From an uncultured virus (IMG/VR IMGVR_UViG_2061766007_000921) (lineage: Duplodnaviria > Heunggongvirae > Uroviricota > Caudoviricetes), in the IMG/VR virus record IMGVR_UViG_2061766007_000921: 64,000 nucleotides of DNA; one strand, 5' to 3'. A program made the position numbers and the translations under genes. Each line of letters opens with the position of its first letter. The stretch's first letter is position 1. Shown one piece after another: positions 46,691 to 60,988 of this stretch. The notes under the pieces are model-generated. The model did not search any database and was not told where the DNA came from. It was given only the letters and a program-made list of their open reading frames with translations.

Positions 46691-46750
46691 AGTTTTGTTG
46701 TTTTTGTTTGACTATTAATTATTATTAAAGAATATTGTTAATTGCAAGTA

Positions 46751-46781
46751 CAAATATAATAATTTTATTTTAACCTGCAAA
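46751..46781 (-). promoter_or_regulatory. Bacteroidota-type promoter for rsr
   Basis: TTTG-N19-TATATTTG. Confidence 0.8.
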
Positions 46782-46801
46782 ATTTTTTACAACAAATTAA
46801 A

Positions 46802-46933
46802 TATACAGAGAAAATTATAAGAATTCATTTTTTAAATGTAATGTAAGAATTGAACTTACTACCCCAAAATTAATAGTTTTGTGCTCTACCATATGAGCTA
46901 ATTACGAAGAACCTCTTATGTGGCTGCTGTATA
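46802..46933 (-). ncRNA. Y-RNA-like 1 (module on acceptor stem; tRNA-like head, ATT loop)
   Basis: TATACAG/CTGTATA ends, CAGCCA..GTTCTTCG, then D, anticodon and T arms, then TTCTC. Confidence 0.75.
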
Positions 46934-46938
46934 ATTTG

Positions 46939-47012
46939 TAGGCTCGGGGAGACTCGAACTCCCAAGATTATGATCCTAAGTCATACGCGTCTGCCAGTTG
47001 CGCCACGAACCC
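46939..47012 (-). tRNA. tRNA-Leu(TAG), short variable loop
   Basis: Cloverleaf, loop CTTAGGA. Confidence 0.85.
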
Positions 47013-47019
47013 ATTATAG

Positions 47020-47091
47020 TTGAAGTATCCTGATTCGAACAGGAATTACAAGTGCCAAAAACTTGTGTGCTAACCATTGCACCATACTTCA
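47020..47091 (-). tRNA. tRNA-Gln(TTG)
   Basis: Cloverleaf. Confidence 0.88.
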
Positions 47092-47097
47092 ATATTG

Positions 47098-47169
47098 TTG
47101 TGGTCCAGGAAATCGAATCCCAATCCTCAGATCCAGAGTCCGATGTAATAACCATTATACGAGACCACA
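47098..47169 (-). tRNA. tRNA-Gln(CTG)
   Basis: Cloverleaf. Confidence 0.85.
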
Positions 47170-47179
47170 ATTTAATTTG

Positions 47180-47251
47180 CAGGCCCTCTAAGATTCGAAC
47201 TCAGATCCTATGGTTTTGGAGACCAAGATTTTACCGTTAAACTAAAGACCC
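47180..47251 (-). tRNA. tRNA-Trp(CCA)
   Basis: Cloverleaf. Confidence 0.88.
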
Positions 47252-47263
47252 ATTAATTATTAG

Positions 47264-47335
47264 AGCAGCTTAGCAGAATCGAACTGCCATCTCGGCCTTG
47301 GCAAGGCCATATAATAACCGTTATACGAAAGCTGC
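47264..47335 (-). tRNA. tRNA-Gly(GCC)
   Basis: Cloverleaf. Confidence 0.9.
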
Positions 47336-47337
47336 AT

Positions 47338-47418
47338 ATATGCTGAACGCTCTCACCGGTGCTTAAGCTACCCGACGATTGTCGCCGAGACAAGATTTGA
47401 ACTTGTACCTTTCAGACT
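47338..47418 (-). ncRNA. Circularly permuted tRNA-like gene opened at the anticodon loop
   Basis: CTGAA, T arm, CTCGGCG-ACAAT-CGTCGGG, D arm, TTCAG. Confidence 0.75.
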
Positions 47419-47420
47419 TG

Positions 47421-47493
47421 AGGGCACGACCGGATTCGAACCGGCATAATACAGTTTTGCAGACTGCTACCTAACCACTCGGAACACATGCCC
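47421..47493 (-). tRNA. tRNA-Cys(GCA)
   Basis: Cloverleaf. Confidence 0.9.
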
Positions 47494-47503
47494 ATTGAAA
47501 TTG

Positions 47504-47578
47504 TCGGGTAGAGCGGACTCGAACCACCATTATCGTGCCTCCTATGCACGCAACCTCAGCCAATTGGTTTACTACCCG
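47504..47578 (-). tRNA. tRNA-Pro(AGG), atypical
   Basis: CGTGC-ATAGGAG-GCACG; Pro-like acceptor. Confidence 0.7.
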
Positions 47579-48438
47579 ATATTATCATATAAATTATTAT
47601 AAAAATATCTACCATACTTGTCAATGACATATTTAAGATATGGTTGTATTTTTGTTCTATCTATAAATTCTACATTATCAACTTGTTCTAATTTTGCTTT
47701 ATTTTTTGGAGTGTAAAACCCTTTTATTTCTACAAGTTTACCATCTACTATAAAATCTGGATAAAACTTGCATATTTCATTTTCAAACGTATATTCAATA
47801 TAATCTTTATTTCTTTCTATTGAAATATTATGTTCTAAACAATATATTACATATGCTAATTCCCATGAACTATCACACCAAATGCCTTTATAATATCCTC
47901 TTTTATAATTTGTATGTGTAGTTTCAGGATTTAAACCTCCAAAATTATTGCATTTAGCCAATTCAGATAATTTTATATGTTTTGTTTTGTCTGAACATTC
48001 TCTAGAACAATATATAGAAGATTTATAATCTTTATATGTATAGTCTTTTCCACAACAAGTACAAGTTAATATCTTTAACTTTTTATAAGGATGCTTAATA
48101 TTCTTGCCAATCAAAGATATTGATTGTTTTTCTCTTAACTTTTTTATATCAGAATTTTTTAAAGTTAATCTATTAGAGCATAATCTTGAACAACATCTTT
48201 TATATTTTCCTGTTTCTAATTGTCTATCTGAAACAACAATTGTATAAGATGATCCACATACTTCACAAATTAAAGTTCTTTCTTTTACACCTGCATTTTT
48301 TGTTCTTCCTGATGATCTTTTTTTATTGAGTTCATCATATTTAGGATTTTTCTTACAAGTTAAATAATGTGAACCTAATTGTCTACCTTCTTCAAATTCT
48401 TGACCACAATATTTACATATATGTTTTTTCTCTTCCAC
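47572..48438 (-). CDS. Putative homing endonuclease (Zn fingers plus PD-(D/E)xK)
   Basis: CxxC repeats, DSSWE, FYPDF, VEIKG; inserted in the tRNA array. Confidence 0.7.
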   Translation of the reverse strand: MEEKKHICKYCGQEFEEGRQLGSHYLTCKKNPKYDELNKKRSSGRTKNAGVKERTLICEVCGSSYTIVVSDRQLETGKYKRCCSRLCSNRLTLKNSDIKKLREKQSISLIGKNIKHPYKKLKILTCTCCGKDYTYKDYKSSIYCSRECSDKTKHIKLSELAKCNNFGGLNPETTHTNYKRGYYKGIWCDSSWELAYVIYCLEHNISIERNKDYIEYTFENEICKFYPDFIVDGKLVEIKGFYTPKNKAKLEQVDNVEFIDRTKIQPYLKYVIDKYGRYFYNNLYDNIG

Positions 48439-48562
48439 AATAAATTAAATCAGTTTATATATTTATTAAAGAGCAAGAAAATAAAATCGAACTTATTCTT
48501 ATATATATTATATAATAAAATAAGTTACAAGATTAAAACCTGTAACTTATTAATTATTAATA

Positions 48563-48637
48563 TGGAGCGAGTAACCAGAATCGAACTGGCATCTTAAGAG
48601 TGGAAATCTCATGCACTAGCCGTTGTGCTATACTCGC
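48563..48637 (-). tRNA. tRNA-Gly(TCC)
   Basis: Cloverleaf with CCA. Confidence 0.92.
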
Positions 48638-48685
48638 AAATTATATAGGTGAATATCACCTATATATTATATCAACATTTATCTA

Positions 48686-49309
48686 TTAAGGCCACTCTCC
48701 AAGAGGTGCATTAAAACCAGAACCCTCAAATACAGGATTCTTATCTGATACTTTTCCAGTTACTGCATCAACATAAAGCTGAGCTTGACTATTTCCGAAA
48801 ATGTACTGTGGATTGGCATCAATAGGTCCAACTTCTTTTCTCAATACGCAATGTTTTGAATGAGGCTTTGGATAATTAACTTCTAAAATCTTCTTATATG
48901 CTTCTTTGAATGAAATTACAATTGCTTCAGCATTGAGAGGAAAATCTTCTACCCAAAATCCTTCTTTTACATCAATCTGATCACCTTCAAGAGTATGTGA
49001 AGTTAAAATAACATTAACATCAGCACTGTGTTCATCTTGATTAAATACTACTTGAAATACTGATGATACACCAGCAACAGTACCGTCACAATTTTCATCA
49101 TCAAGATAGTCTTTCAAAAGAACACAAGTCTCATACCATCTGTAATCAGAATTGTAATTGAGAAACATATACTCACGATCTACAGAAATTGTATTTTCTA
49201 CTACAAGTTCTCCAGTAGGTTCAACTGCAGGCTCTTTCTTGCAAGAAGTACATCCAACAATGAAACCAAGTGAGCATACAAGTAACAATGTAAAAATAAA
49301 CTTTTTCAT
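48686..49309 (-). CDS. Hypothetical lipoprotein
   Basis: Signal peptide with lipobox-like Cys. Confidence 0.7.
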   Translation of the reverse strand: MKKFIFTLLLVCSLGFIVGCTSCKKEPAVEPTGELVVENTISVDREYMFLNYNSDYRWYETCVLLKDYLDDENCDGTVAGVSSVFQVVFNQDEHSADVNVILTSHTLEGDQIDVKEGFWVEDFPLNAEAIVISFKEAYKKILEVNYPKPHSKHCVLRKEVGPIDANPQYIFGNSQAQLYVDAVTGKVSDKNPVFEGSGFNAPLGEWP

Positions 49310-49387
49310 TTTATGTAATTATTTTTAAAGTATTAGAAATTGTATCTATTACATTAAAAATTTATTACAAATATTTCAAATTTATTG

Positions 49388-49459
49388 TTCCAACGGACAA
49401 TTCCGAGATGTCGACCTGGAGGATATGAATCTCCTGCTCTGCCTCTGAGCTACGTTGGA
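49388..49459 (-). tRNA. tRNA with CAT anticodon (Met or Ile2), non-canonical T loop
   Basis: Loop TTCATAT; T loop CTCGGAA. Confidence 0.7.
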
Positions 49460-49469
49460 ATAAAATAAG

Positions 49470-49541
49470 TTGAGGTATCCTGATTCGAACAGGAATTACA
49501 GGTGCCAAAAACCTGTGTCCTAACCATTGGACGATACCTCA
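49470..49541 (-). tRNA. tRNA-Gln(TTG), second copy
   Basis: Paralog of 47020..47091 with compensatory changes. Confidence 0.88.
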
Positions 49542-49554
49542 ATATTATTAATTG

Positions 49555-49628
49555 ATCCGGAAATCAGACTTGAACTGACGACCTCTTCCTTACCAAGGAA
49601 GCGCGACTACCAACTGTGCTATTCCGGA
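49555..49628 (-). tRNA. tRNA-Thr(GGT)
   Basis: Cloverleaf. Confidence 0.9.
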
Positions 49629-49795
49629 ATATTGGAAAGTTTTCAGCATACCAGATATTCTGGTATTCCTCCTTCTAGAGGATTAAGGTACTTTCCTAGA
49701 CTCACTACCTTGGCGTTACTCAGTCACCTGTCTCTCCACGGACATCCACTTTACCTGAGAGCTCTGCATCTGTTGTGTGGACCAATACAGCATCG

Positions 49796-49870
49796 GGAGA
49801 ATAGTGGGAGTCGAACCCACTGCCTGAAGAGCCACAATCTTCCGCTCTGACCAGATAAGCTATATCCTCC
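49796..49870 (-). tRNA. tRNA-His(GTG)
   Basis: Cloverleaf, G-1:C73. Confidence 0.9.
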
Positions 49871-49877
49871 ATGTAAA

Positions 49878-50033
49878 AATAATGTAGTGCCGCGGCAAGG
49901 AACTATCCAGTATCACTGTTCTCGACCTCCCCTTAAGGATTATTTCAGACTCCACTCAGATGCTTTCAGTTGCTTTGCCACCTTAACGGTTGATGAGTTT
50001 CCTGAGGTACAACTTACTTTTTACTACATTATT
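49878..50033 (-). ncRNA. ~156-nt structured RNA with a 23S H97-like loop
   Basis: 11-bp terminal stem; ACT-GAAAGCATCTG-AGT. Confidence 0.55.
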
Positions 50034-50035
50034 TG

Positions 50036-50110
50036 TACCTCGGCTGCGATTCGAACGCAGGACCCACAGCTTAGAAGGCTGTTGCTTCTATCCAACTGAG
50101 CTACCGAGGC
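50036..50110 (-). tRNA. tRNA-Arg(TCT)
   Basis: Cloverleaf. Confidence 0.9.
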
Positions 50111-50118
50111 ATATTTAA

Positions 50119-50247
50119 ATACAGAGAAAGTTGTAAAGAATCAAAAAATGTAAATGTTGGATTTGAACCAACGACTTTCGGCTTGGAATGCTGACGAACT
50201 AACCACTGTTCAAATTTACGATGAACTTCTTTACTTGGCTGCTGTAT
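50119..50247 (-). ncRNA. Y-RNA-like 2 (module on acceptor stem; TCC loop)
   Basis: ATACAG/CTGTAT ends, CAGCCAA..GTTCATCG, tRNA arms, TTCTC. Confidence 0.75.
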
Positions 50248-50254
50248 ATTGTTG

Positions 50255-50400
50255 TGGCGGGTGAAGGACTCGAACCTCCAATCTTTTGTTCCAAATACAA
50301 ATGTGTTTACCGACGAAGTAACTCAATGATATGACTACCATATGATTACTCACAAGGAGAATGAAATCTTGAGTGTTTTCTAAAATTTCACTAACCCGCC
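50255..50400 (-). ncRNA. Y-RNA-like 3 (module inserted in the D loop of a Gln(TTG)-like tRNA)
   Basis: GGCGGGT/ACCCGCC acceptor; insert TTCTC...TAGTCA..GTTACTTCG. Confidence 0.7.
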
Positions 50401-50405
50401 ATTTG

Positions 50406-50478
50406 TGGAACTTACGAGAATCGAACTCGTACCTTAGGCTTGCAAAGCCCACGTGCTAACCGTTATCACTAAAGCCCC
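50406..50478 (-). tRNA. tRNA-Ala(TGC)
   Basis: Cloverleaf, G3.U70. Confidence 0.9.
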
Positions 50479-50490
50479 ATATAAAAATTA

Positions 50491-50638
50491 AACAAAAAAG
50501 ATAAAGAATTCTAAACAAAAGTATAAATCAAATGACAAATACCGGATTCGAACCGATAATTAAAAAATGGAAGTTTTTCGCGTTTTCCTATTACGCCAAT
50601 TCGCCGAAGTAACTTTTATTTTGGCTATTATCTTTGTT
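50491..50638 (-). ncRNA. Y-RNA-like 4 (module on acceptor stem; Gly(TCC)-like head)
   Basis: TAGCCAA..GTTACTTCG followed by a full cloverleaf. Confidence 0.72.
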
Positions 50639-50640
50639 AG

Positions 50641-50714
50641 AGCCAGCGACCGGAATCGAACCGACAACCTGCTGATTACAAATCAGCTGCAACTACCAAT
50701 TGTGCTACGCTGGC
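50641..50714 (-). tRNA. tRNA-Thr(TGT)
   Basis: Cloverleaf. Confidence 0.9.
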
Positions 50715-50720
50715 ATATAA

Positions 50721-50933
50721 AATAAAGCTTCCAACTCTCACAGAGCTCTTTACGGAATATTCTTCTCTGCTTCCGATTAACTTCACATAAGATATATGAT
50801 CACTAATCTTATACTTATATAATCTGCACTGGGACATCATCAATTTTAAATTTGGCCAAAACCGTGATGCATATTCTTGCAGCGAGTCTTTGCAAGGTCT
50901 TTTCAAACCTGAGTACCCTTCGGAAACTTTATT
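50721..50933 (-). ncRNA. ~213-nt structured RNA of unknown class
   Basis: 12-bp terminal stem AATAAAGTTTCC/GGAAGCTTTATT between tRNAs. Confidence 0.5.
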
Positions 50934-50936
50934 TTG

Positions 50937-51011
50937 TGGCTTCGACCGGATTCGAACCGATGACCTTCTGAATGTAAGTCAGATGCTCTAAACCATCTGC
51001 GCTACGAAGCC
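50937..51011 (-). tRNA. tRNA-Val(TAC)
   Basis: Cloverleaf. Confidence 0.9.
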
Positions 51012-51035
51012 ATTATAAATTATATCTAAAATTTG

Positions 51036-51110
51036 TCGGGCCGACCAGACTCGAACTGGCAATCTTTGCCGTGAAAGGGCAATGTCCTAAACCTATTAGA
51101 CGACGGCTCG
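51036..51110 (-). tRNA. tRNA-Glu(TTC)
   Basis: Cloverleaf. Confidence 0.88.
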
Positions 51111-51111
51111 A

Positions 51112-51347
51112 TGGCGGGGATAGAAGGATTTGAACCTACTATTCTGGATTGTGTCCCAGAAAATTACGAAGTAACTTTGACTTGACTACTTCCTATATTT
51201 TAATTTTTCCTCACATCACCCTGTCCAAGTGGAGCTAACAATACTTTAAGTCACTTGGTCAAGCAAAAACCAGGTTCTGTGAAGCCGCCTAGCAAAGAGA
51301 AAGTAGACAAAGAACAATGTAACCGACTTACCATGTCGAATATCCCC
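51112..51347 (-). ncRNA. Y-RNA-like 5 (YrlA-type: module replaces the anticodon arm; large apical insert; long variable arm; CCA)
   Basis: GGGGATA/TATCCCC-GCCA, D arm, TTTCTC...TAGTCAA..GTTACTTCG, T arm. Confidence 0.75.
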
Positions 51348-51352
51348 ATTTG

Positions 51353-51427
51353 TACTCCCAGTGGGACTCGAACCCACAATTTCAACCTTGAGAGGGTTGC
51401 GGCTTAAACCTGTTTGCCCATAGGAGC
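51353..51427 (-). tRNA. tRNA-Glu(CTC)
   Basis: Cloverleaf. Confidence 0.88.
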
Positions 51428-51437
51428 ATTTACTCTG

Positions 51438-51510
51438 TGGAGCAGGGTGGTAACGATCCACCTCCCTCGGATTTTCAGTCCGCTGCAATCACCTGATCTG
51501 CCACTGCTCC
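51438..51510 (-). tRNA. tRNA-Phe(GAA)
   Basis: Cloverleaf, atypical T loop ATCGTTA. Confidence 0.82.
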
Positions 51511-51518
51511 ATATATTG

Positions 51519-51592
51519 TCGGGATAGCGGGACTCGAACCCACGACCTCATGCTCCCAAAGCACGCATACTAGCCAACTGTACTATATCCCG
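51519..51592 (-). tRNA. tRNA-Pro(TGG)
   Basis: Cloverleaf. Confidence 0.92.
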
Positions 51593-51705
51593 ATAATAAT
51601 TGATTTAAATGTGCTGCTCAAATTCTATACACCAAACAGACAAACCATGATGTGTAGTCTGTTTCCAAACAGGACTTTAACCTGGACTCCTTTAAATCAT
51701 AAATT

Positions 51706-51791
51706 AAGTTGAGAAAATTGCCAAAGGAAAATTTTTCAAGTGTTCTGAGTTGCAATCGGAATTCGAAGTATCCTTTAACTGACTTCAACTT
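51706..51791 (-). ncRNA. Y-RNA-like 6 (minimal)
   Basis: AAGTTGA/TCAACTT ends, AGTCA..GATACTTCG, TTCTC. Confidence 0.65.
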
Positions 51792-51795
51792 TTAG

Positions 51796-51871
51796 CGGTG
51801 TAGAGGGGTGTCGATCCCCAATTTTTACTGACGTGACAGGCCAGTTCCTCCCCCGGAAGGCTCACTACACC
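51796..51871 (-). tRNA. tRNA-Asp(GTC), atypical D and T loops
   Basis: Loop CTGTCAC. Confidence 0.78.
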
Positions 51872-51880
51872 ATAATTTTG

Positions 51881-51955
51881 CGGTCCGTACGGGACTCGAA
51901 CCCGTGAACTCCACCGTGACAGGGTGGCATGATACACCTACTTCACCAACGAACC
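51881..51955 (-). tRNA. tRNA-Asp(GTC)
   Basis: Cloverleaf. Confidence 0.9.
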
Positions 51956-51962
51956 ATAATTA

Positions 51963-52047
51963 AAATTTAGAGAATAACAGAAAAAGTAAACAGTTTGAAA
52001 TGTTTCCCAGTAATTTCGAAGTAACTTTTTCTTTGGCTACTAAATTT
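51963..52047 (-). ncRNA. Y-RNA-like 7 (minimal)
   Basis: AAATTTAG/CTAAATTT ends, TAGCCAA..GTTACTTCG, TTCTC. Confidence 0.7.
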
Positions 52048-52048
52048 G

Positions 52049-52120
52049 CGGCTTGAGAGAATTACGATATCTCGACCCACGGCTTAACAGGCCGTTGCTC
52101 TGCCTCTGAGCTACCAAGCC
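52049..52120 (-). tRNA. tRNA-Asn(GTT), non-canonical T loop
   Basis: Cloverleaf; T loop ATCGTAA. Confidence 0.8.
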
Positions 52121-52237
52121 ATATTAAATATAATTTATGCTTCAGGTGGTTCTTCAGAGTGCCACTCCTTTGTGCTCTCCCTGAATTATGGTTGGCTAAT
52201 CTCCCACATAAATTATATATCAGTGTACACTGTAGTG

Positions 52238-52312
52238 TCTAGTAGGTGGGACTCGAACTCACATTATCCTGGCTCCAGACCAGGCAACCTCAGCCAATTG
52301 GTTTACTACTAG
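52238..52312 (-). tRNA. tRNA-Pro(TGG)-like with C33/A37
   Basis: Loop TCTGGAG; D arm identical to 47504..47578. Confidence 0.65.
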
Positions 52313-52322
52313 TTAAATTGTG

Positions 52323-52399
52323 TCGGGATGGAGGGATTTGAACCCCCGTGCAACCAGCTACCGTTTCAACAAGGTATAAGCTTGAGCGGATACATCCCG
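52323..52399 (-). ncRNA. Rearranged tRNA-like RNA, TAT anticodon loop
   Basis: Acceptor and T arm normal; D-loop-like AGCTGG lies 3' of the anticodon arm. Confidence 0.65.
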
Positions 52400-52404
52400 T
52401 AAAT

Positions 52405-52498
52405 AATTAAGTTTAGATAGAGTAGAAGTAAAAAGTTAATTGTGATTATCAGTCGGAATTAATAATAGAAGTAACTCGTTACATAGCCAAACTTAATT
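52405..52498 (-). ncRNA. Y-RNA-like 8 (minimal, divergent)
   Basis: AATTAAGTTT/AAACTTAATT ends, GGCTA..GTTACTTC. Confidence 0.55.
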
Positions 52499-52500
52499 TG

Positions 52501-52574
52501 TAGAGGGAGTGGGATTCGAACCCACAGGAATCGGTGTTTGAGACCGACGCGTCTACCGGTTGCGCCATCCCTCC
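52501..52574 (-). tRNA. tRNA-Leu(CAA), short variable loop
   Basis: Cloverleaf. Confidence 0.85.
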
Positions 52575-52678
52575 ATAAAGTGGAGGACCCATACCGTCAC
52601 GGCGGTATCCTCCAATAAAGTTTACAGATTCCAACATGTCAAAGAACCTGAGATTTAAGAATAAATCTAAAATCTTCG

Positions 52679-52753
52679 CGGGGATAGAGGGACTCGAACC
52701 CACAACCATCGGCTTAACAGGCCGCCGCTCTCAACCATTAAAGCTATATCCCC
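52679..52753 (-). tRNA. tRNA-Asn(GTT)
   Basis: Cloverleaf. Confidence 0.9.
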
Positions 52754-52787
52754 ATATTTCTAAAGAACTTGTTTTGAAATTATATTG

Positions 52788-52818
52788 CAAATATAAACAA
52801 AGTTTTTGAATCTGCAAA
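52788..52818 (-). promoter_or_regulatory. Bacteroidota-type promoter
   Basis: TTTG-N19-TATATTTG. Confidence 0.8.
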
Positions 52819-52837
52819 ATTTTTTCAAAAAATTTTG

Positions 52838-52913
52838 TACTGGGTACCGGATTCGAACCGGTGTCGACGGTGTGAAAGGCCGCCCGCCTCAACCACTAGC
52901 AGAATAACCCAGC
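52838..52913 (-). tRNA. tRNA-Glu(TTC)
   Basis: Cloverleaf. Confidence 0.82.
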
Positions 52914-53050
52914 ATATATTTCAAAATGTAGATGGTAATTGGGCTTTACCATATTTCAATTGCGCTCCTGCATTACCGGAAATTAGCAACAGTGTAATCT
53001 AACCTCGCCCTTGACTTATACGACTACATTTATATTTCAAATAACTATTG

Positions 53051-53125
53051 TGCTCCCGGTGGGATTCGAACCCACGTAGTCACTGCTTAAGAGGCAGGTA
53101 CCTAAAACCGCTCGGCCACAGAAGC
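53051..53125 (-). tRNA. tRNA-Lys(CTT)
   Basis: Cloverleaf. Confidence 0.88.
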
Positions 53126-53162
53126 ATATTTTAAATGAACTTTGTTTTTTTGTTTTACTATG

Positions 53163-53193
53163 CAAATATAAAAACTTTTTTTCTACCTGCAAA
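53163..53193 (-). promoter_or_regulatory. Bacteroidota-type promoter
   Basis: TTTG-N19-TATATTTG. Confidence 0.8.
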
Positions 53194-53211
53194 ATTTATT
53201 TTAAAAAATTT

Positions 53212-53280
53212 GAGCTCCTTATCTTTGTCAGATGAGGAGCTCTTTTTAAGGAGGTGTTTATAATGTTTAACTCATCTGAC
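53212..53280 (-). promoter_or_regulatory. Attenuator 1: terminator 53212-53242 and antiterminator strand 53271-53280
   Basis: GTCAGATGAG is the perfect complement of CTCATCTGAC in the terminator 5' arm. Confidence 0.75.
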
Positions 53281-53403
53281 TCTATTATGATTTTCGGGAT
53301 CTTGTGTAAATCTTGCTCCGCCTTCTACACACAATACAACATTCCAACCCTGATTCATATCAAGATTGAACTTACTGTTACTATGTATGTTAGATAAAAT
53401 CAT
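53272..53403 (-). CDS. Leader peptide 1 (43 aa)
   Basis: MILSNIHSNSKFNLDMNQGWNVVLCVEGGARFTQDPENHNRVR; stop lies inside the antiterminator. Confidence 0.7.
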   Translation of the reverse strand: MILSNIHSNSKFNLDMNQGWNVVLCVEGGARFTQDPENHNRVR

Positions 53404-53479
53404 TTGTCAAATAAGTTTGTTAAAAATTTAATTGTATATATTATATATTAAAGTTCTGCGAGAGATTTTTTATTTTTGT

Positions 53480-53824
53480 TTACAAACAAAAATTTATTAA
53501 AGGTTTTACATCAATTACACGTTCTTCTACTGGATAGTATGCAGGAAAAGTATAAGTGATTTTATAATCTTTAAACTCTTCTTCCCATTCAATATATTTC
53601 CAGTCTATATTATCAAATCGTGGAAGACCAAAATCTGCAGACTCTTCATAAAATTCTACAGTTTTGTTTTTGTTGTTAATATTAAATTCTCCTCCACCGT
53701 ATACATATTCATCATCAGATCTTAAATCTCTATGATAAGATACCATACCAAGTTTAAGACGTCCTATAGGATGTTTTTCATGCACTTGATCTTTTTTAAC
53801 AGCAATAATAAATTTATAAGCCAT
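53480..53824 (-). CDS. Hypothetical protein
   Basis: 114-aa ORF, YHRDL...GGG.F...S.DFG. Confidence 0.65.
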   Translation of the reverse strand: MAYKFIIAVKKDQVHEKHPIGRLKLGMVSYHRDLRSDDEYVYGGGEFNINNKNKTVEFYEESADFGLPRFDNIDWKYIEWEEEFKDYKITYTFPAYYPVEERVIDVKPLINFCL

Positions 53825-53868
53825 ATTTTAAGTTATTTGTTATTATGATACAAATATACAAATAATAT

Positions 53869-54435
53869 TTAATTTAACAAAAAATTTTTATAGTTTTTGT
53901 AAATATAAGGAACCAACTTATCTATATCTAAATTATCTTTTATTATAATTTTACAATTATCTGTTTCATATTTTTTATATGTCTTATCTGCAACGCATAA
54001 TATTTTTTTATATTCATTATTCAATGTGCAGAAATCTATAATATTGTTTTGTGTATATATAATATCTTTATATTTTTCCCAAGACTTTACATCTAAAATA
54101 AAACATATGTTTTCTTTTGTAAAATTATTTAATCGTCTAATAAAGTTTTCTTTAACTGACTCTTTAACATCATTATGAGGATATAATACATTAACATTAT
54201 TGTCTATACATAATCCATAAGTTTCTTTTGATTTAGAAAAATTATGTATATTGTATGTAAGCTCTTTTATATTTAACAAATCGATACTATTAAAATTGTT
54301 TATTAAATATATGAAATCATCTCCATTAATCATATTACCCATAAATGGATTTGGATATTTACAATTAAAAAAGATTTTGTATAAAAGCTGTCCAACACAT
54401 GAAGATGATACAATATTTGGTATTATGTTATTCAT
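53869..54435 (-). CDS. DUF1919-like protein
   Basis: IVSSSCVG...NPF...RRL; probable start 54435. Confidence 0.5.
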   Translation of the reverse strand: MNNIIPNIVSSSCVGQLLYKIFFNCKYPNPFMGNMINGDDFIYLINNFNSIDLLNIKELTYNIHNFSKSKETYGLCIDNNVNVLYPHNDVKESVKENFIRRLNNFTKENICFILDVKSWEKYKDIIYTQNNIIDFCTLNNEYKKILCVADKTYKKYETDNCKIIIKDNLDIDKLVPYIYKNYKNFLLN

Positions 54436-54448
54436 ATAAAATTTAAAA

Positions 54449-54946
54449 TTATCTTCTTCCTGGATGATTATTTGGAGGAGTTGGTCTATTAGATGGTCCA
54501 TTTGGCCTTGGTCTATTATTTGGAGCCGGACCAGGTCTAACATTTGGCCTTGGCCTTGGCTGAGGACGAGGAGCTACTCTATGTCTATAATAATATGGAT
54601 AATAATGATAATAATAATTATTGTAATAAGGATAATGATAACCATAAGGATACACAACAACTGAAGTAGTACTTGTAACTCTTTCAGATTCAACAATTTG
54701 TTCTACTCCTTCTACAACAACTAATTGATTATCAATATAATGCTCTGTTCCGTTTTGTTCAACAAAATATACAGAAGTCAATGTGTCTTGCAGCGGAACT
54801 TCTTTCAAAACTACATTGTTATAACTTCTTATCCTTTCTCCTGCAGGAGACAATACAGAAACATTTCCAAGAGTAATTACTCTATTTGAAACAGCACAAC
54901 TTGTAATAAAGCATACAAGCAAAATCATAAACAAAATTTTTTTCAT
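54449..54946 (-). CDS. Lipoprotein with Tyr-rich and Pro/Arg-rich tail
   Basis: ITSC lipobox; low-complexity C-terminus. Confidence 0.65.
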   Translation of the reverse strand: MKKILFMILLVCFITSCAVSNRVITLGNVSVLSPAGERIRSYNNVVLKEVPLQDTLTSVYFVEQNGTEHYIDNQLVVVEGVEQIVESERVTSTTSVVVYPYGYHYPYYNNYYYHYYPYYYRHRVAPRPQPRPRPNVRPGPAPNNRPRPNGPSNRPTPPNNHPGRR

Positions 54947-54964
54947 ATGTGTATTATTTAAATG

Positions 54965-55360
54965 TTATTCTTTAACCCAATATCCGTATAATGAACGATT
55001 TCCGCAATCCCAAATATCATAATACTTGTTATTTGCAACTGCAGTAAGATGACTAGCAAGACTTAGAACATAAGTACCAGTATATTTACTTGCAAACTCT
55101 TTAACAGTAGGTCTTTTGCTTCCCTTTAAGACTTTAATAGGTACCCATCGAAATCCTTTAGATTCAAGATATTTACCAATAACTTTTCTGTCATTTGGCA
55201 TCAACTGCATTTTTCTTGCAATTGGAATCAAATCATCAAATACTGTATACCAACTTGAATTTGTTGCTTTAACTACTGCTCGTACTGCACAATCTCCACA
55301 CTTATGTGTATTTGGTTGGAAATATTCAAAATTACTTTTTTCTTTATCAGTCTTCTTCAT
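54965..55360 (-). CDS. Hypothetical phage protein
   Basis: GDCAVRA...HLTAV...YD.WDC. Confidence 0.7.
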   Translation of the reverse strand: MKKTDKEKSNFEYFQPNTHKCGDCAVRAVVKATNSSWYTVFDDLIPIARKMQLMPNDRKVIGKYLESKGFRWVPIKVLKGSKRPTVKEFASKYTGTYVLSLASHLTAVANNKYYDIWDCGNRSLYGYWVKE

Positions 55361-55371
55361 ATCACGAATAT

Positions 55372-56157
55372 TTACTTTTGACCTATAAGTATTTTAACAA
55401 TATCCCAAAGTTCATCAGTCAAGGTAAACAAATATGGATCATTGTTAAAATGTTCATCATTTTCATCTTTAATAATTGGAATTCCAAACAACTTACTATC
55501 AAAATATGTTGTCTTGTATCCCTCTTCACTGTCATATTTATAAAGAAGATATTCTATGACTTCTCTATTAACATTACTAAAACTGTTTTTTAAAATGGAA
55601 TGTTCTTTAATTTCATTTTTTGAAATAGCATCTATAATTCTACGATATAGATATCCTACATTTCCATCATGAATGTCATATGGATTAATATCATAATCAC
55701 TTACAAGATTATGTTTTGGTTCTGCTTTTGCCCACTGATTTCCGCAGTCTTTACACTCATTAACTACATAAGTATCTAAATGACCTTCGATACTTCCGCT
55801 ATGTGTATAATTGCCGCTATTATAAAATAATCCACCTGAAAAACTTCCAGATCCTGAAGAATGCCCGTTAAGAGATCCTTGAATTCTAAGAAACTTATCA
55901 ATTCTATTTTTACTCTTACAAATAGGACAGACTTGATTTTTTTCTTTTACTTTGGCTCTGTCTTTATCATAATCTTTCCAAGCAAGCTCACGATAATAAT
56001 TATATTTTAATCTAAGAAAATCATCAATAATTATTTTCCTAACATCATAGACTTTCTGTCTATCACTTTTGATTTTAGCAATTCTTGCCTCTTCGAGTGC
56101 TTGACGTTCTGCTCTGCGTCTTTTTATTCCAAACAAATCAAATTTATACTTCTTCAT
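55372..56157 (-). CDS. Hypothetical Zn-ribbon protein
   Basis: CPIC...CKDCG; start approximate. Confidence 0.6.
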   Translation of the reverse strand: MKKYKFDLFGIKRRRAERQALEEARIAKIKSDRQKVYDVRKIIIDDFLRLKYNYYRELAWKDYDKDRAKVKEKNQVCPICKSKNRIDKFLRIQGSLNGHSSGSGSFSGGLFYNSGNYTHSGSIEGHLDTYVVNECKDCGNQWAKAEPKHNLVSDYDINPYDIHDGNVGYLYRRIIDAISKNEIKEHSILKNSFSNVNREVIEYLLYKYDSEEGYKTTYFDSKLFGIPIIKDENDEHFNNDPYLFTLTDELWDIVKILIGQK

Positions 56158-56182
56158 TTTGTCTTTATTTAAAAGATCATTA

Positions 56183-56377
56183 TTAATATTCGTCAGAATC
56201 AAGTTGTCTTTTAATATCTTGTTTTACAGTTCTTCTTGAAACAAAATGAACCATACCTTCCCACCAATTTTCAATCTTTCTTCCCTTTTTGGTGTGAAGA
56301 TGATAATCTGTTTTCCAACTTCCAGAAAAACTAGTAGTTCCACTAGATAATTTCTTTCCTAAATTGTATGGTTTCAT
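56183..56377 (-). CDS. Small hypothetical protein
   Basis: MKPYNLGKK...NWWE; starts just after the CUA tRNA. Confidence 0.55.
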   Translation of the reverse strand: MKPYNLGKKLSSGTTSFSGSWKTDYHLHTKKGRKIENWWEGMVHFVSRRTVKQDIKRQLDSDEY

Positions 56378-56381
56378 ATTG

Positions 56382-56453
56382 TGCTCCATGCAGGAATCGA
56401 ACCCGCTTATATTCGTTTTAGGGACGAGCGACCAACCAATGGCCCAATGGAGC
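56382..56453 (-). tRNA. tRNA with CTA anticodon (amber suppressor candidate, C33)
   Basis: CTCGT-CCCTAAA-ACGAA anticodon arm; normal acceptor, D and T arms. Confidence 0.65.
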
Positions 56454-56498
56454 ATTTTGGTAATTATTTTAAAGTCAATTACCAAAACTTTTCTAATA

Positions 56499-56529
56499 CA
56501 AATATAACAATATATTTTATATCTGCAAA
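56499..56529 (-). promoter_or_regulatory. Bacteroidota-type promoter ahead of the CUA tRNA
   Basis: TTTG-N19-TATATTTG. Confidence 0.8.
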
Positions 56530-56530
56530 A

Positions 56531-56842
56531 TTATTTTAACAATTGTTCATTTTTAAATAGTTCTCCAGAATCTTCAACTGCAATAGCAGTCAGTTTATTT
56601 TTGAGATCAGGCTCATAAAAGCAAGAATAATCTTTTTGCAATTCTTTCAACTTATTGTTCCAAAAATTTATATCAGTCTTTAAGAAAACTAGATATTCAT
56701 TTCTCCAAAACTTTTTCTTACATTTATGATCTATCAAATATTGTGCAACAGCATGACTTCCTTGAACTGCAGCATATATAGGCTTCAATTTTCTGTCACA
56801 AAGAACATAAAGTCTTCGCTCTTGTTTATTCTTCTATTTCAT
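56531..56842 (-). CDS. Pth2-like peptidyl-tRNA hydrolase domain protein with in-frame TAG at codon 3
   Basis: MK*KNKQERRLYVLCDRKL...AVQGSHAVA...FYEPDL...TAIA. Confidence 0.6.
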
Positions 56843-57203
56843 CGTTTTCCAAATTTAATTCAATTCCTTGTTCTTTACAATCTTTAAAAAATTCTTCTTT
56901 CATTTTTTCTTTCAATTCATCATGATTAACTTGTGAATCAAAATCAGAATGTTCTTCTCTAAGAAGTTTTATTTTTATTGAATTATCAAGCATTTCTCCA
57001 AATAAAGAATCCTGAGGCTCAAAATACGTCTGATCATAATCAAGAGCAATTTCTTGTTTATAATACATACTAAGTATTTTTACAAACTTTTCTAATGTAT
57101 CAATATCAGAAAACATTGTATTCTTTGGCTTTGATATATCTTGTTTTTTATTGTTTTTCATACATCTAAAAATATTTTTAAACCAGGCATTATTCATTTT
57201 CAT
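56826..57203 (-). CDS. Hypothetical protein
   Basis: ORF in operon. Confidence 0.55.
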   Translation of the reverse strand: MKMNNAWFKNIFRCMKNNKKQDISKPKNTMFSDIDTLEKFVKILSMYYKQEIALDYDQTYFEPQDSLFGEMLDNSIKIKLLREEHSDFDSQVNHDELKEKMKEEFFKDCKEQGIELNLENDEIEE

Positions 57204-57666
57204 CTGCAGCAAAATATTTTTTATGTAATTTGTTATAAAGACCAGGAGCAGTATCTTCATAACCGTCTACTGATACATATGTATATTTTGCTTGGTCAGT
57301 TTTTAACCAAGATTCAAAATTTGGATCACAAGTTGATTTAGTAATTTCTTTACCAGATGTTCTAAGTTCTTCATAAAGTTTATAAAGAATTCTAAGAATT
57401 ATACCGCGATAAAAACATCTAGTTTGTGCTACATATGGATGTAAATGAGATTTAAGATATTTCTCAGGAAGATTTACAGTTTTACGTTGAGGCTTTTCAT
57501 CTTTCTGAAGAGCTTCAAGCTTTTTAATTTCTTCCAAAATATTCAAAGTATCATTTTGATCCTTTGAATTTTCTAAAATTTCTGATTGATTATTTGTAGA
57601 AGAGACTTCTTCTTTAGAATTTGTTATATTTTTAACAATGTCATGTAGTTTTTGTAAAGTATTCAT
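57190..57666 (-). CDS. Hypothetical protein
   Basis: 158-aa ORF. Confidence 0.6.
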   Translation of the reverse strand: MNTLQKLHDIVKNITNSKEEVSSTNNQSEILENSKDQNDTLNILEEIKKLEALQKDEKPQRKTVNLPEKYLKSHLHPYVAQTRCFYRGIILRILYKLYEELRTSGKEITKSTCDPNFESWLKTDQAKYTYVSVDGYEDTAPGLYNKLHKKYFAADENE

Positions 57667-57813
57667 AATATTAATTGTATATTTTAAGTTAATTTTAAAT
57701 TGTTTTTAATAATAAATGTCACCAAAAATATACACAATATTATGGAGGTTTATACTTCCTAAAAATCTAGTAATGATAATTTGTTCTCATATAAAATAAT
57801 CAAATTTAAATAT

Positions 57814-58737
57814 TTATTCAAATATTATATCTAATGAGTCATCAATAGTTTTTGTAGTTTTCAAATATTCTATAAATTCTTTAAATTTTTCTCTTACAAA
57901 TTCTGGTTTATACTTTCCATCATCTCTAATTATATATGGAATATATCCTGTTTTTATTATTTCATTTATCTTTATATTATCTCTATTTTGTACTTGTTCA
58001 ACTGAATGATTTTCTTTTATCTTTTTATAATGCCAAGGTCCATTCCATAATATAGCAATTTTAAAATCATGTATAATAACATCTGCATCCCAATTGTTAA
58101 ACATAGGAATATTATGTTCTACTGATTTAAAATTCTTTTCACACAATTCACAAAAATATATTTCATTTTTTGATCTTCTACTATCTCCTTGTGATAATAT
58201 TGCTTTTCTTCCTCCTTCAGAAATCTTTTCTAAAGCGTCTTTAGACAAAAATTCATTTCTGTGTGCTTTGTAATATTGATAACATTTATCACTACAACAT
58301 ATTTTGCTTTTTGATAAGCGTGTAGTATATTCTGAATTACAAACTACACATTTATGAATTTTTAAATGTTTTTCTGCTTCCTTTGACGAAGATTCTCTTA
58401 TTTTTTGTAAAGTTTCTTCAGAATGAACTCTTGAATTTGCACATGCTCTAGAACAATATTTTCTATATTTTCCCTTTTCATATTCTTTGTCAGTCAATGA
58501 TAATGAAAATTCTTTACCGCATTTTGGACAAATGAACACTCTATCTTTTCTTGTTAATTCATCTAATTCCTTTTCTTTTCTTTTTCTATCTGCTATAATT
58601 TTGCATGTTCTTATTGCATTTTGCTTTAAATATTCTCTATTTTCAAATTCAGCACAAGGATTTAATGAACAAAACTTTATATGATTAGAAAGTCCATGTT
58701 CATTAAATTCTTTACCACAATACTTGCATATAGGCAT
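57814..58737 (-). CDS. Putative homing endonuclease (Zn fingers plus Vsr-like domain)
   Basis: CxxC repeats, CSRACANSR, SKNE, WDAD, WNGPWH. Confidence 0.7.
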   Translation of the reverse strand: MPICKYCGKEFNEHGLSNHIKFCSLNPCAEFENREYLKQNAIRTCKIIADRKRKEKELDELTRKDRVFICPKCGKEFSLSLTDKEYEKGKYRKYCSRACANSRVHSEETLQKIRESSSKEAEKHLKIHKCVVCNSEYTTRLSKSKICCSDKCYQYYKAHRNEFLSKDALEKISEGGRKAILSQGDSRRSKNEIYFCELCEKNFKSVEHNIPMFNNWDADVIIHDFKIAILWNGPWHYKKIKENHSVEQVQNRDNIKINEIIKTGYIPYIIRDDGKYKPEFVREKFKEFIEYLKTTKTIDDSLDIIFE

Positions 58738-58798
58738 AATAAAAACTAAGATAAATTTTTATATTTATCTTAGTTGCGATAGAAAAATTCGAGCTTTG

Positions 58799-58885
58799 TT
58801 GCGGAAGTAGGACTCGAACCTACGAGGGATTTATGAATACCATGAGCTTATGAGACTCACCTGATGCCGCTTCAGACATTCCGCA
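58799..58885 (-). tRNA. tRNA(CAT) with long variable region
   Basis: Loop CTCATAA; ~19-nt variable region. Confidence 0.7.
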
Positions 58886-58896
58886 ATATAAAATTG

Positions 58897-58982
58897 TAGC
58901 GGGTCTCGGAGTCGAACCGAGTATCTCAACGGGTTATGAGCCCGGAATGATTTTATCAAATTATCCGTTTCACTCCCCCGCA
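58897..58982 (-). tRNA. Initiator tRNA-fMet(CAT), enlarged D loop
   Basis: GGG/CCC anticodon stem, 1:72 mismatch. Confidence 0.75.
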
Positions 58983-59060
58983 ATATATTATATTTATATT
59001 TCAAATATCTTTTTAAAAAATCTGTATTGTCATAAGAGTAACGGCTCTTTACAGATTTTA

Positions 59061-59612
59061 AAGTCCCATAATAATCTCTCTACCGTCATAGGTATCCATT
59101 ATCTCCCCTGTACTTTGATGGACAAACATCAAAAAGTCATAGTAACTCAAACAGGTTCCTTCTTGTACTAAGGTTTACTCTCGCTTTGTGTTGGGTTTTA
59201 ATACCATTCCCAATCAGCTTCAACCGTTTCCTCATACATCGTTCCTCAATCCTACTGCTAAACTACATTACAGTCTTGCTCATGAGGCCGAGCCAGCTTT
59301 TAACTGATGTACTAACATTAAAAGCACTTGGACAAAGCTCCTCCGAATTTACGATCAGTTACGTGTCTTGCCAAAAACGAATACTTTACGATAGTATTAA
59401 AACGATTTTAAATTCATAAGAATCTGAAACTTATTTCTACTGTGGTTTACTATACTAGCCAACCTGCCCACAGAGATAAAATACAGTGCTTCGCATTACT
59501 AATAGCTTATCTTATGATTGGGTTTAGCACCTTAATTCCCGTCACCACCGTTACCCCCGGTTCTCATATACTGGGTTTCAATCCTTGTAAATCCCTCCTA
59601 ATGTTTGGGACA
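59061..59612 (-). ncRNA. ~550-nt large structured RNA (ROOL/GOLLD-class candidate)
   Basis: No credible ORF; GTCCCA/TGGGAC closing helix; several AGTA/GAA loop-E motifs. Confidence 0.6.
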
Positions 59613-59674
59613 TATAAAATCCGGAACGCCGTACTCTCAATAAGGTTTAATCCTATTCCAATGAACTTAAACTG

Positions 59675-59760
59675 CGGTGAGAGAGGGATTCGAACCCCCG
59701 GACCCAGAAAGGATCAACAGTTTTCAAGACTGCCGCTTTAGACCGCTCAGCCATCTCACC
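59675..59760 (-). tRNA. tRNA-Ser(TGA)
   Basis: Cloverleaf, long variable arm. Confidence 0.92.
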
Positions 59761-59768
59761 ATATAGTA

Positions 59769-59920
59769 AACAAAAGAGAAATCAGCGAAATCTGTGTTTT
59801 CAGTTTACAAATTACAAGTTTGTTGCTTTACCACTAAGCTAATCGTTCAAAATTAATGGCGAACAATGATGGAGTCGAACCATCGAAATCGAAGTAAGAT
59901 TTTGCTTGGCTACTTTTGTT
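59769..59920 (-). ncRNA. Y-RNA-like 9 (module at the variable loop of a permuted Thr(TGT)-like tRNA)
   Basis: TAGCCAA..TTACTTCG, T arm, ATTGTTC-GCCA, linker, GAACGAT, D arm, anticodon arm, TTTCTC. Confidence 0.75.
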
Positions 59921-59983
59921 ATTTTCAGTATTTTAATGAACTCTATTATAAATTATATATCAAAAACAAGTTTTGATTAATTG

Positions 59984-60075
59984 CGGTGAGTAGAGGGCAT
60001 GATCCCCAGCCAGATTCTGCATCCGACCGCATAGTTTTCAAGACTAGCTCCAACCCCGTGTTGAATTTACTCACC
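59984..60075 (-). tRNA. tRNA-Ser(TGA), atypical D and T arms
   Basis: Loop CTTGAAA, long variable arm, G73. Confidence 0.75.
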
Positions 60076-60098
60076 ATATTATAAAAATTATATTAAAC

Positions 60099-60514
60099 AT
60101 AGGCGTGTTGTTACACCAAATGCTCCAACGGCTAGTTTTACAAACATTCCAGCGAATCAATTAACCTAACGTTGATTCTGCTGTATATCGTTCTCATGAT
60201 ATAAAGCCAAGATTATCACGTAATCTCATAAGGTTAAGTGCACGTTCCTCCCGTACTGGGGCACCTTATTTGTTATACTTGTCTCCGACTCCCATAATAT
60301 CTTTCATGTATCTAAGGAACGGCATGCATTTCAGCACGTCTTTATGTTAGAACATTCCAGTATTGGTGCTTATGACTCCGTGTGGCGTCGCATAGCGTGT
60401 AGGTTCACTGCCATACTGTGCCCTTGGGACATCCTCTTCGCCGTGTGTACCTACGGCCTAGTCCCTTCCACTTGCAACTCATTAAAGCTGGCTACTTTCA
60501 AGCCTACTACCTAT
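60099..60514 (-). ncRNA. 416-nt RNA containing 23S L11-binding-domain and sarcin-ricin-loop mimics
   Basis: GTAGGCTTGAAAGTAGCCAGCTTTAA...GGTGTAACAACAC; GTGC-CCCAGTACGGGAGGAACGT-GCAC. Confidence 0.72.
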
Positions 60515-60549
60515 TATTTAATATATTTTCAATGAACTTTCAATTAAAA

Positions 60550-60780
60550 ATCAACCTTTTGTTGCATACCAACTGGCTCCATCCTTGACTGTCCGGCAAT
60601 GGTTCACCAGAATGTTTCGCAGGCGCGCTACACCTAATTCATCTTTTTTGTTCAGTTTGCACTACTGGGAAAGATGTCTCCGATTGAAAACCAAGTTTTT
60701 GAGATCTCCGTTTGGTAGCTACTCCTACATCAATCTCTCAATCAAATTACATCTGACGGGATTTGATACTCCGTTTTGAT
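60550..60780 (-). ncRNA. ~230-nt structured RNA of unknown class
   Basis: Non-coding, GC-enriched, several hairpins, ATCAA/TTGAT ends. Confidence 0.45.
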
Positions 60781-60789
60781 GCTTCCTAG

Positions 60790-60881
60790 TGGGAGCGGAG
60801 GGATTCGAACCCACTTACTCATAAACCATTACGCCGATTTGTTACGAGGACGATTTTACGGACCGTTGGCGTTACACTCCC
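60790..60881 (-). ncRNA. Pseudoknotted Tyr(GTA)-like tRNA (D loop relocated)
   Basis: ACGCC, anticodon arm, CTCGTAA..GGCGT-AATGG..TTATGAG, T arm. Confidence 0.7.
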
Positions 60882-60906
60882 ATATTCATTATTTCAAAAA
60901 ACTCTG

Positions 60907-60979: not shown

Positions 60980-60988
60980 TTTACCTTG

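Follow-up and report, generated by a model that had tools for sequence, protein, structure and literature searches.

The window analysed here, a 64,000-nt stretch of DNA from the uncultured virus record IMGVR_UViG_2061766007_000921, is an AT-rich segment of a large phage. It carries genes for a portal protein, a UvsX-like recombinase, NrdD and HNH endonucleases together with a 3,919-aa open reading frame (ORF), and all 41 tRNAs found by ARAGORN, like all but two of the 35 ORFs of at least 150 amino acids, lie on the minus strand. Our subject is a minus-strand element at 53.2 kb (locus B), which a first-pass annotation had described as a transcription attenuator in front of a tRNA block. We confirmed that a leader ORF, an antiterminator and a terminator-like hairpin are present at this position. 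The leader ORF (leader B, 53403-53272) consists of 43 codons and a TGA stop and encodes the peptide MILSNIHSNSKFNLDMNQGWNVVLCVEGGARFTQDPENHNRVR, which uses 19 amino-acid types and has no Tyr, as had been claimed. Its start context falls at the 91st percentile of 1,719 ATGs and equals the median of 28 true starts. A hairpin of 12 pairs, including G.U pairs, lies within the ORF (53372-53341) and belongs to a structured leader. The leader region folded at -32.5 kcal/mol on the minus strand (z -2.42, with 4 of 200 shuffles equally good) and at -18.1 kcal/mol on the plus strand (z -0.17).

The stop of leader B falls within the first of three pairing segments. Segment A, the 5' strand of the antiterminator (53280-53271, RNA GUCAGAUGAG), includes the TGA at 53274-53272. 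Its DNA sequence, GTCAGATGAG, is the perfect 10-nt complement of CTCATCTGAC at 53236-53227, which bears out the earlier statement that the stop lies inside a strand pairing with the terminator. Segment B (CUCAUCUGAC) is common to the A:B antiterminator and to the terminator-like hairpin at 53242-53212 (hairpin B), where it makes up the inner portion of the left arm and some of the loop. This hairpin has the layout GAGCUCCU-C-AUCU-GACAA-AGAU-A-AGGAGCUC, with 12 pairs and a C.A mismatch at -17.3 kcal/mol, and is followed by the tail AAAUUUUUU; its 3' arm is referred to as segment C. Downstream lies tRNA-Lys(CUU) (53125-53050), the first gene of a block of 30 ARAGORN tRNAs that extends down to 44607 (block B). 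In two strain variants, represented by contigs from two other samples, the frame of leader B is intact and segments A, B and C are unchanged; the leader itself differs by a synonymous GGC to GGT change and by GTA to GCA (Val to Ala).

The same design, with the C.A mismatch and with compensatory sequence changes, had been claimed for a second element, and we found it at 63849-63688 (locus A, 63.7 kb). Here the leader ORF (leader A, 63849-63766) has 27 codons and a TGA stop, encodes the peptide MITRNTYSINIIKSAAIYYRLKLCVQS and has a start context at the 87th percentile of the 1,719 ATGs. Segment A of this locus (GUUGAAUGAG, DNA GTTGAATGAG, 63770-63761) again holds the stop and is complementary to CUCAUUCAAC (CTCATTCAAC) at 63717-63708. 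The terminator hairpin (hairpin A, 63725-63688) has the C.A mismatch as in hairpin B and a canonical U-tract, and lies 15 nt before tRNA-Arg(ACG) (63672-63599). The flanks CUCCUCAU and AUAAGGAG are identical at the two loci. Between the loci three A:B pairs are changed on both sides (C-G/U-A, A-U/G-C and G-C/A-U), and two segment B positions in the inner terminator stem are also compensated in the right arm (AUCU/AGAU versus AUUC/GAAU). These changes were read directly from the sequence; MAFFT set the A segments out of register, so there is no software pair count. The RNA design has been preserved between the loci, but the two leader peptides are unrelated. Because the paralogue at 63.7 kb repeats the design with compensating changes in all three segments, we infer that the alternative A:B pairing is real and not a product of chance.

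Comparison with other hairpins bears on the same point. Among 161 gene-strand hairpins with U-rich tails, drawn from the window and from 59 related loci, only those of loci A and B had a 10-nt complement upstream, and two others reached 9 nt. None of 112 unrelated viral loci sharing the hairpin edges had a 9-nt upstream complement; these came from a looser hairpin pattern and were used as a control only. When the upstream duplex was tested against shuffles, locus A gave z -4.9 and locus B z -2.4 (P 0.025). Among 425 TGA triplets on the minus strand between 44 and 64 kb, 1.9% end an ATG-initiated ORF of at least 27 codons and 0.47% one of at least 43 codons. Both A segments end such an ORF, and from these rates the joint chance is about 7 in 10,000. 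It could be argued that the hairpins are diverged copies of one terminator, and that the upstream 10-mers, together with the ORFs and the codon bias, arose by chance in AT-rich DNA and were singled out post hoc. The window does contain 86 perfect inverted repeats of at least 9 nt, the shuffle result at locus B is the weaker of the two, and several statistics were tried. However, the majority of these repeats contain only A and T, and none besides those at loci A and B overlaps a terminator. Five compensating changes preserve both pairings, ORFs end in segment A at both loci, and the codon bias described below is seen in both leaders under three nulls. We consider coincidence improbable.

Folding was modelled for the nascent RNA, which was cut before the right arm exists, with the ribosome represented by a 30-nt mask. 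With no ribosome, A:B formed 10 of 10 pairs at both loci; the structured leader B pairs partly with the start of segment A, yet A:B still forms in this ribosome-free model. When a ribosome was included, A:B again formed completely for A-site positions from codon 2 to 37 in leader B and from codon 2 to 22 in leader A, and it was lost with the A site at codons 39-44 or 25-28, respectively. In the model, then, the position of the ribosome on the ORF would select the fold; the default state would be read-through, and termination would require that a ribosome arrive at the last part of the ORF early enough. Against this, the full-length equilibrium fold was always the terminator, with 0 A:B pairs at 12 of 12 ribosome positions on leader B and 11 of 11 on leader A. 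Since the terminator is the minimum-energy fold throughout, the switch would have to be kinetic. The equilibrium result counts against a thermodynamic switch without deciding the matter, because in the trp system, too, the antiterminator is the weaker of the two structures.

Drawing on the sequences, their complementarity and covariation, the folding models and the codon statistics given below, we propose the following scheme. RNA polymerase would transcribe the short ORF, then segment A with the ORF stop, and then the hairpin, whose 5' half (segment B) could pair either with segment A or with its own 3' arm (segment C). A:B would form first and block the terminator. A ribosome at the last few codons or at the stop would cover segment A, B:C would fold and transcription would end. 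Slow decoding anywhere in the leader would let polymerase continue into the tRNA genes, and read-through into these genes would act as feedback on decoding capacity. Because the ribosome must reach the end of the ORF in time for termination, any slow codon would count. The scheme presumes that the leader ORFs are translated, that the hairpins terminate transcription and that the outcome responds to tRNA supply. Our leading reading, which we hold to be about as likely as not, is that the element belongs to a pair of paralogous, ribosome-dependent transcription attenuators within the tRNA region of a large rumen phage with promoters of Bacteroidota type.

The codon content of each leader was compared with the tRNA blocks, with block B taken as 53125-44607 and block A as 63672-58798, under standard wobble and with A34 read as inosine. 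We found that leader B samples 20 of the 24 anticodon species of block B (null 14.7, P 0.012) and that leader A samples all 7 of those of block A (null 4.6, P 0.014). Measured against ATG-ORF starts, this sampling gave P 0.0098 for leader B (102 ORFs) and P 0.020 for leader A (246 ORFs), and a GC-matched null gave P 0.016 and P 0.013. The contrast between own and other block gave P 0.012 for leader B and P 0.008 for leader A; the antisense ORF at locus B showed no codon bias (contrast P 0.99). The fraction of codons decodable by the leader's own block was 0.48 versus 0.28 expected for leader A (P 0.027). Adding tRNA-Ser(AGA) and a tRNA whose anticodon was read as CAU altered the codon tests little. 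Together these results are suggestive of a bias of each leader to the codons of its own tRNA block.

Several observations weigh against treating the leaders as sensors on these grounds. The decodable fraction of leader B was 0.79 versus 0.68 expected (P 0.07), and the presence of 19 of the 20 amino acids in 43 codons, to which the first-pass annotation had given meaning, is within chance (P 0.06). When A34 was allowed to read only U, leader B still sampled 20 of 25 species (P 0.028), but leader A sampled 6 of 8 (P 0.31) and its significance was gone. Neither leader has a run of regulatory codons. The block boundaries, the wobble rule and the statistic were picked after the data were seen, and the tRNA inventory is incomplete, with Rfam finding more tRNA-like genes than ARAGORN; a low-threshold ARAGORN run could not assign the extra Rfam matches. 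The decoders that had been listed for leader codons are all in block B, including tRNA-Pro(AGG) for CCC, although this last pairing would require putative A34-to-inosine editing. Block B does lack Tyr as the leader does, but the match is selective: by ARAGORN the block also has no Ile or Met tRNA and no decoder for TTA or TCT, all of which leader B uses. Block B offers no decoder for nine codons of leader B (ATG twice, ATT, ATA, TTA, TCT, CTT, GTT and GTC). The codon result depends on the wobble rule, and the statistics behind a "pan-amino-acid sensor" reading are modest.

Other tRNA genes of the array have features of their own. A tRNA at 49388-49459 was missed by ARAGORN and found by Rfam (40.4 bits); its anticodon was read by eye as CAU, and an A.C mismatch closes the stem. 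The tRNAs with A34 are Pro(AGG), Leu(AAG), Asn(AUU) and Ser(AGA), the last with a 48-nt intron (47503-47578, 61856-61931, 46835-46907 and 61938-62077, respectively), and they fit the strong preference of the phage for U-ending codons (CCT 20.2 versus CCC 0.1 per 1000). A run of 201 N at 61607-61822 breaks the tRNA region and cuts an Rfam tRNA match at 61569-61625; at this N run one contig carries 251 letters where the window skips 178.

Locus A is a cleaner case of an attenuator than locus B, because its hairpin lies between a promoter and tRNA-Arg(ACG): a Bacteroidota-type motif is present at 63898-63868, and there is no promoter motif from the hairpin to the tRNA. At locus B a consensus promoter at 53193-53163, also noted in the first-pass annotation, lies between hairpin B and tRNA-Lys. 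This promoter is part of an 84-nt repeated module (53211-53128, families D5 and D6; -33 TTTG at 53193-53190 and -7 TATATTTG at 53170-53163) that recurs at 63416-63333 with 88% identity and in further copies. The module starts immediately after hairpin B and owns its "U-tract". The AAATTTTTTAAAATAAA tract is the upstream A/T tract of the module, and the same letters occur at 63416-63368 with no hairpin before them. An AAA stands between stem B and the U's, an offset that had likewise been noted, whereas the other terminators of this phage have the U-run directly after the stem. As a putative intrinsic terminator, hairpin B combines a stem of -17.3 kcal/mol with an offset U-run that belongs to the promoter module. 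A minus-strand scan of the tRNA region showed no promoter motif just upstream of leader B, which would be transcribed from the promoter at 53881 through the gene for a 114-aa protein. Because its own promoter follows hairpin B, block B would be transcribed irrespective of read-through. A switch at 53.2 kb could only add read-through to a promoter-driven basal level, and its leverage would be limited. The strain variants, having no change in A, B or C, provide no covariation. The X19 RNA contigs gave almost no cover of 53203-53603, with none listed across the hairpin, and such contigs are uninformative on transcript ends or levels. Overall, the attenuator interpretation is partly supported: the duplicated anatomy with three-way compensation, the modelled ribosome dependence, the bias of each leader to its own tRNA block and the amino-acid-matched leaders of related phages (described below) speak in favour, and the promoter behind hairpin B speaks against.

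A rival account takes hairpin B for an ordinary, possibly bidirectional terminator at the end of an operon, which would shield the protein genes upstream from the strong tRNA promoter. The ORF would then be a small gene or spurious, and A:B would have another role, such as 3'-end stability, processing or occlusion of the stop region, instead of controlling the tRNA genes. Consistent with this, the hairpin adjoins the promoter module, ends the unit starting at promoter 53881 and is terminator-like on both strands. The equilibrium fold under all ribosome masks, the non-significant amino-acid count and decodable fraction, and the plain terminators that relatives show directly before tRNAs also agree with it. 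However, a terminator of this kind leaves unexplained why the three segments recur at 63.7 kb, flanked there by a promoter and a tRNA, why the stop lies inside segment A in both copies, and why the codon bias is specific to the block. Unrelated peptides with a kept RNA design are unlike paralogous small proteins. In leader A, 4 of the 27 codons are rarer than 2.1 per 1000, unlike genes of the same phage; for the sensor interpretation it must be added that its rare GCG and CGC codons build the arms of a small hairpin and need not be sensors. We consider a plain operon-end terminator possible but unlikely.

We also asked how the plus strand compares, since both hairpins are perfect and more stable there. 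The C.A mismatch, at an identical position in both copies, becomes G.U, the energies are -20.1 and -21.4 kcal/mol versus -17.3 and -16.1 kcal/mol on the minus strand, and hairpin B is directly followed by a T-run, TTTTT. These facts count against a minus-strand function and could indicate plus-strand terminators or 5' structures tied to the small hydrophobic ORFs at 53263-53397 and 63713-63796, the first of which has AAGGAGGTG 6 nt before its ATG at 53263. Bacteroidetes mRNAs are without Shine-Dalgarno sequences, however, according to PMC6847099. Nearly all of the larger ORFs and all of the tRNAs are on the opposite strand, and near the hairpins the plus strand has no Bacteroidota-type promoter. 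The two ORFs differ in sequence and in their position relative to the hairpin, and their start contexts are poor (62nd and 6th percentile). A spacer change in one strain turns the ATG at 53263 into GTG, and the leader region on this strand folds no better than shuffles. Segment A would lie downstream of the terminator and therefore could not affect termination. A plus-strand function is very improbable.

The promoters of the tRNA region also bear on the host. On the minus strand of this region we found eight promoter copies with -33 TTTG and -7 TATATTTG, including 53193-53163, which has the -33 TTTG, the -7 TAnnTTTG and the proper spacing of a Bacteroidota sigma-A promoter. The Bacteroidetes sigma-A consensus is -33 TTTG / -7 TAnnTTTG, as quoted in passages of PMC7366714 and PMC9723704. 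Because the tRNA-region promoters match this consensus, the host of the phage is probably a member of the Bacteroidota. A megablast of the window against phage records gave no match. Seventeen DNA runs hold about a quarter or more (24-46%) of the sampled words of one 4-kb stretch of the window; their labels are bovine, goat or plain gut metagenome, or just metagenome, and one is unlabelled. Contigs from two other samples connect 53871 directly to 61175 and leave out 7.3 kb. Each end falls in a copy of the promoter module (53881 and 61183), and the junction may stem from recombination of one module with another or from the way the repeat was assembled. Scattered through the tRNA array are three HNH endonuclease genes (47572-48438, 57814-58737 and 62292-62924) that have repeated segments in common.

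Related loci were obtained with the Ro-like protein encoded at 45029-46690, a search that returned 3 viral and 60 metagenome loci at 53-86% identity, many of them with tRNA arrays. No orthologue emerged when the two leaders and the two antisense ORFs were compared by blastn and tblastn with the related loci collected up to that point, and in several relatives a tRNA is preceded, at a distance of 4-67 nt, by a plain terminator that lacks a strong upstream duplex; both results weigh against the attenuator proposal. Viral-contig scans returned no match for the neighbouring 114-aa protein, for the exact hairpin or for the promoter pattern. One further locus, L175, was rejected as a relative: its match was a spurious one of 22 residues, and it has no tRNAs.

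Two other kinds of leader were found among the relatives. An Arg leader of 14 codons, MMNY(D/N)(N/D)ILRRRTWT, with Arg codons AGA CGA AGA, is present in four loci (L167 13445-13692, L115 2648-2771, L163 5320 and L168 4389). In L167 the strand after the stop pairs either with the 5' part of the ORF or with the 5' half of the terminator (duplex -23.4 kcal/mol, z -6.4). Under ribosome masks, a stall at the Arg codons gave the antiterminator, and a ribosome at the stop, or none, gave the terminator, as in a 1:2 / 2:3 / 3:4 set. A tRNA-Arg(UCU) follows 41 nt after the hairpin, and then Arg(ACG). For the Arg leader of L115 the model is less clear, and an Arg tRNA cluster lies about 1.3 kb downstream. 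On these models the L167 Arg leader would be the clearest attenuator candidate found. A Gln-rich leader of 32-35 codons, with the consensus M.K.QYTY..TLKQQDAL, occurs in five loci (L114 14624-14800, L124 15566-15750, L115 4953-5128, L167 17452-17630 and, on the minus strand, L176 1495-1673), with one copy in each of three phage records inspected. Its terminator has G.U pairs on the gene strand. A TCCTGG core within the ORF paired with CCAGGA of the terminator in all four nascent folds computed (L114, L124, L115 and L167), and this core is retained although the reading frame over it differs among members. The next tRNA is Gln(UUG) in four of the five; in L114, the odd one out, a 3-nt deletion has removed one CAA. 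The copy at locus A and the L167 Arg leader are better test cases than locus B.

In the window, a suppressor-type tRNA with anticodon CUA (called tRNA-Pyl by ARAGORN) lies at 56381-56453 with its own promoter at 56529-56499 and an 11-bp AT-rich hairpin directly before it, and relatives carry CUA or UUA suppressor tRNAs. tRNA-like genes with an anticodon loop of 8 or 9 bases are present at 52841-52910 of the window and in L113 (9147-9223), L143 (8543-8614) and L144 (9572-9643). Their four-letter "anticodons" are tcac, ttca and gatc, and they could be frameshift-type or degenerate tRNAs.

Leader-peptide attenuators are known for amino-acid operons (trp, his, leu, thr, ilv and pheA). Like the phage element, they have a short leader ORF and a terminator whose 5' arm can pair alternatively with an upstream strand, and the location of their stop is such that a ribosome finishing the ORF hides the antiterminator strand, and slow decoding leads to read-through. 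The multivalent thr and ilv leaders sense several amino acids, which resembles the broad content of the phage leader. In contrast, the phage cargo is tRNA genes and not biosynthetic enzymes, and the phage leader has no run of one regulatory codon. The phage element also has no clear 1:2 element, and its untranslated state is predicted to read through. Locus B, unlike these systems and unlike locus A, has a promoter between terminator and genes. In passages of PMC9723704, clues for leader-peptide attenuation are given for amino-acid operons in a Flavobacterium, and this control is considered likely in the phylum. T-box riboswitches (RF00230) also report tRNA status through exclusive terminator and antiterminator folds. 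They differ from the phage element in that they bind uncharged tRNA directly, need no ORF and have a conserved T-box sequence and Stem I. Neither 53195-53420 nor 63680-63860 matched any Rfam family at E up to 1, and in the T-box comparison the only matches reported for 44000-64000 were of tRNA type; a T-box identity of the leaders was rejected. The loci with Arg and Gln leaders (L167, L115, L163 and L168; L114, L124 and L176) come from phages whose Ro-like protein is 53-66% identical to that of the window. Like the window, they have a small ORF and a terminator-complementary strand inside tRNA arrays. Unlike the window's leaders, theirs have amino-acid-specific codon runs that match the next tRNAs, with a full 1:2 / 2:3 / 3:4 set in L167, and the leaders have no sequence similarity to those of the window.

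In searches of the full-text literature, with subscription journals outside their scope, we found no description of attenuation or leader-peptide control of phage tRNA genes or tRNA operons. Of the readings weighed here we favour a ribosome-timed attenuator, at about even odds; control of this type is not known for tRNA genes. Phage tRNA arrays are usually regarded as constitutively expressed accessories. More tentatively, and with less confidence than we give to the element itself, large rumen phages might meter their own tRNA output by ribosome-timed attenuators, with the leader acting as a stopwatch over codons read by the downstream tRNAs. Some leaders would be specific (Arg-Arg-Arg or Gln-rich) and some broad, as here, and host tRNA loss or codon mismatch during infection would switch on the matching block. 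If true, this would be the first direct feedback from decoding capacity onto tRNA gene transcription, with the decoders themselves placed under classical leader-peptide control. The division of tRNA arrays into blocks in giant phages would gain a testable explanation, and a ready-made device for sensing how fast ribosomes move in Bacteroidota would be at hand.

Two minor observations concern other RNAs of the region. Besides the gene for the Ro-like RNA-binding protein (45029-46690), the window has weak YrlA-like Rfam matches at 59825-59886 and 63127-63201. Metatranscriptome contigs pile up at 58817-59618, between tRNA-Met and tRNA-Ser (summed word depth 145-600, contig depth being a poor measure). 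This interval has no ORF of at least 100 aa and no Rfam family, and may encode an abundant unknown RNA.

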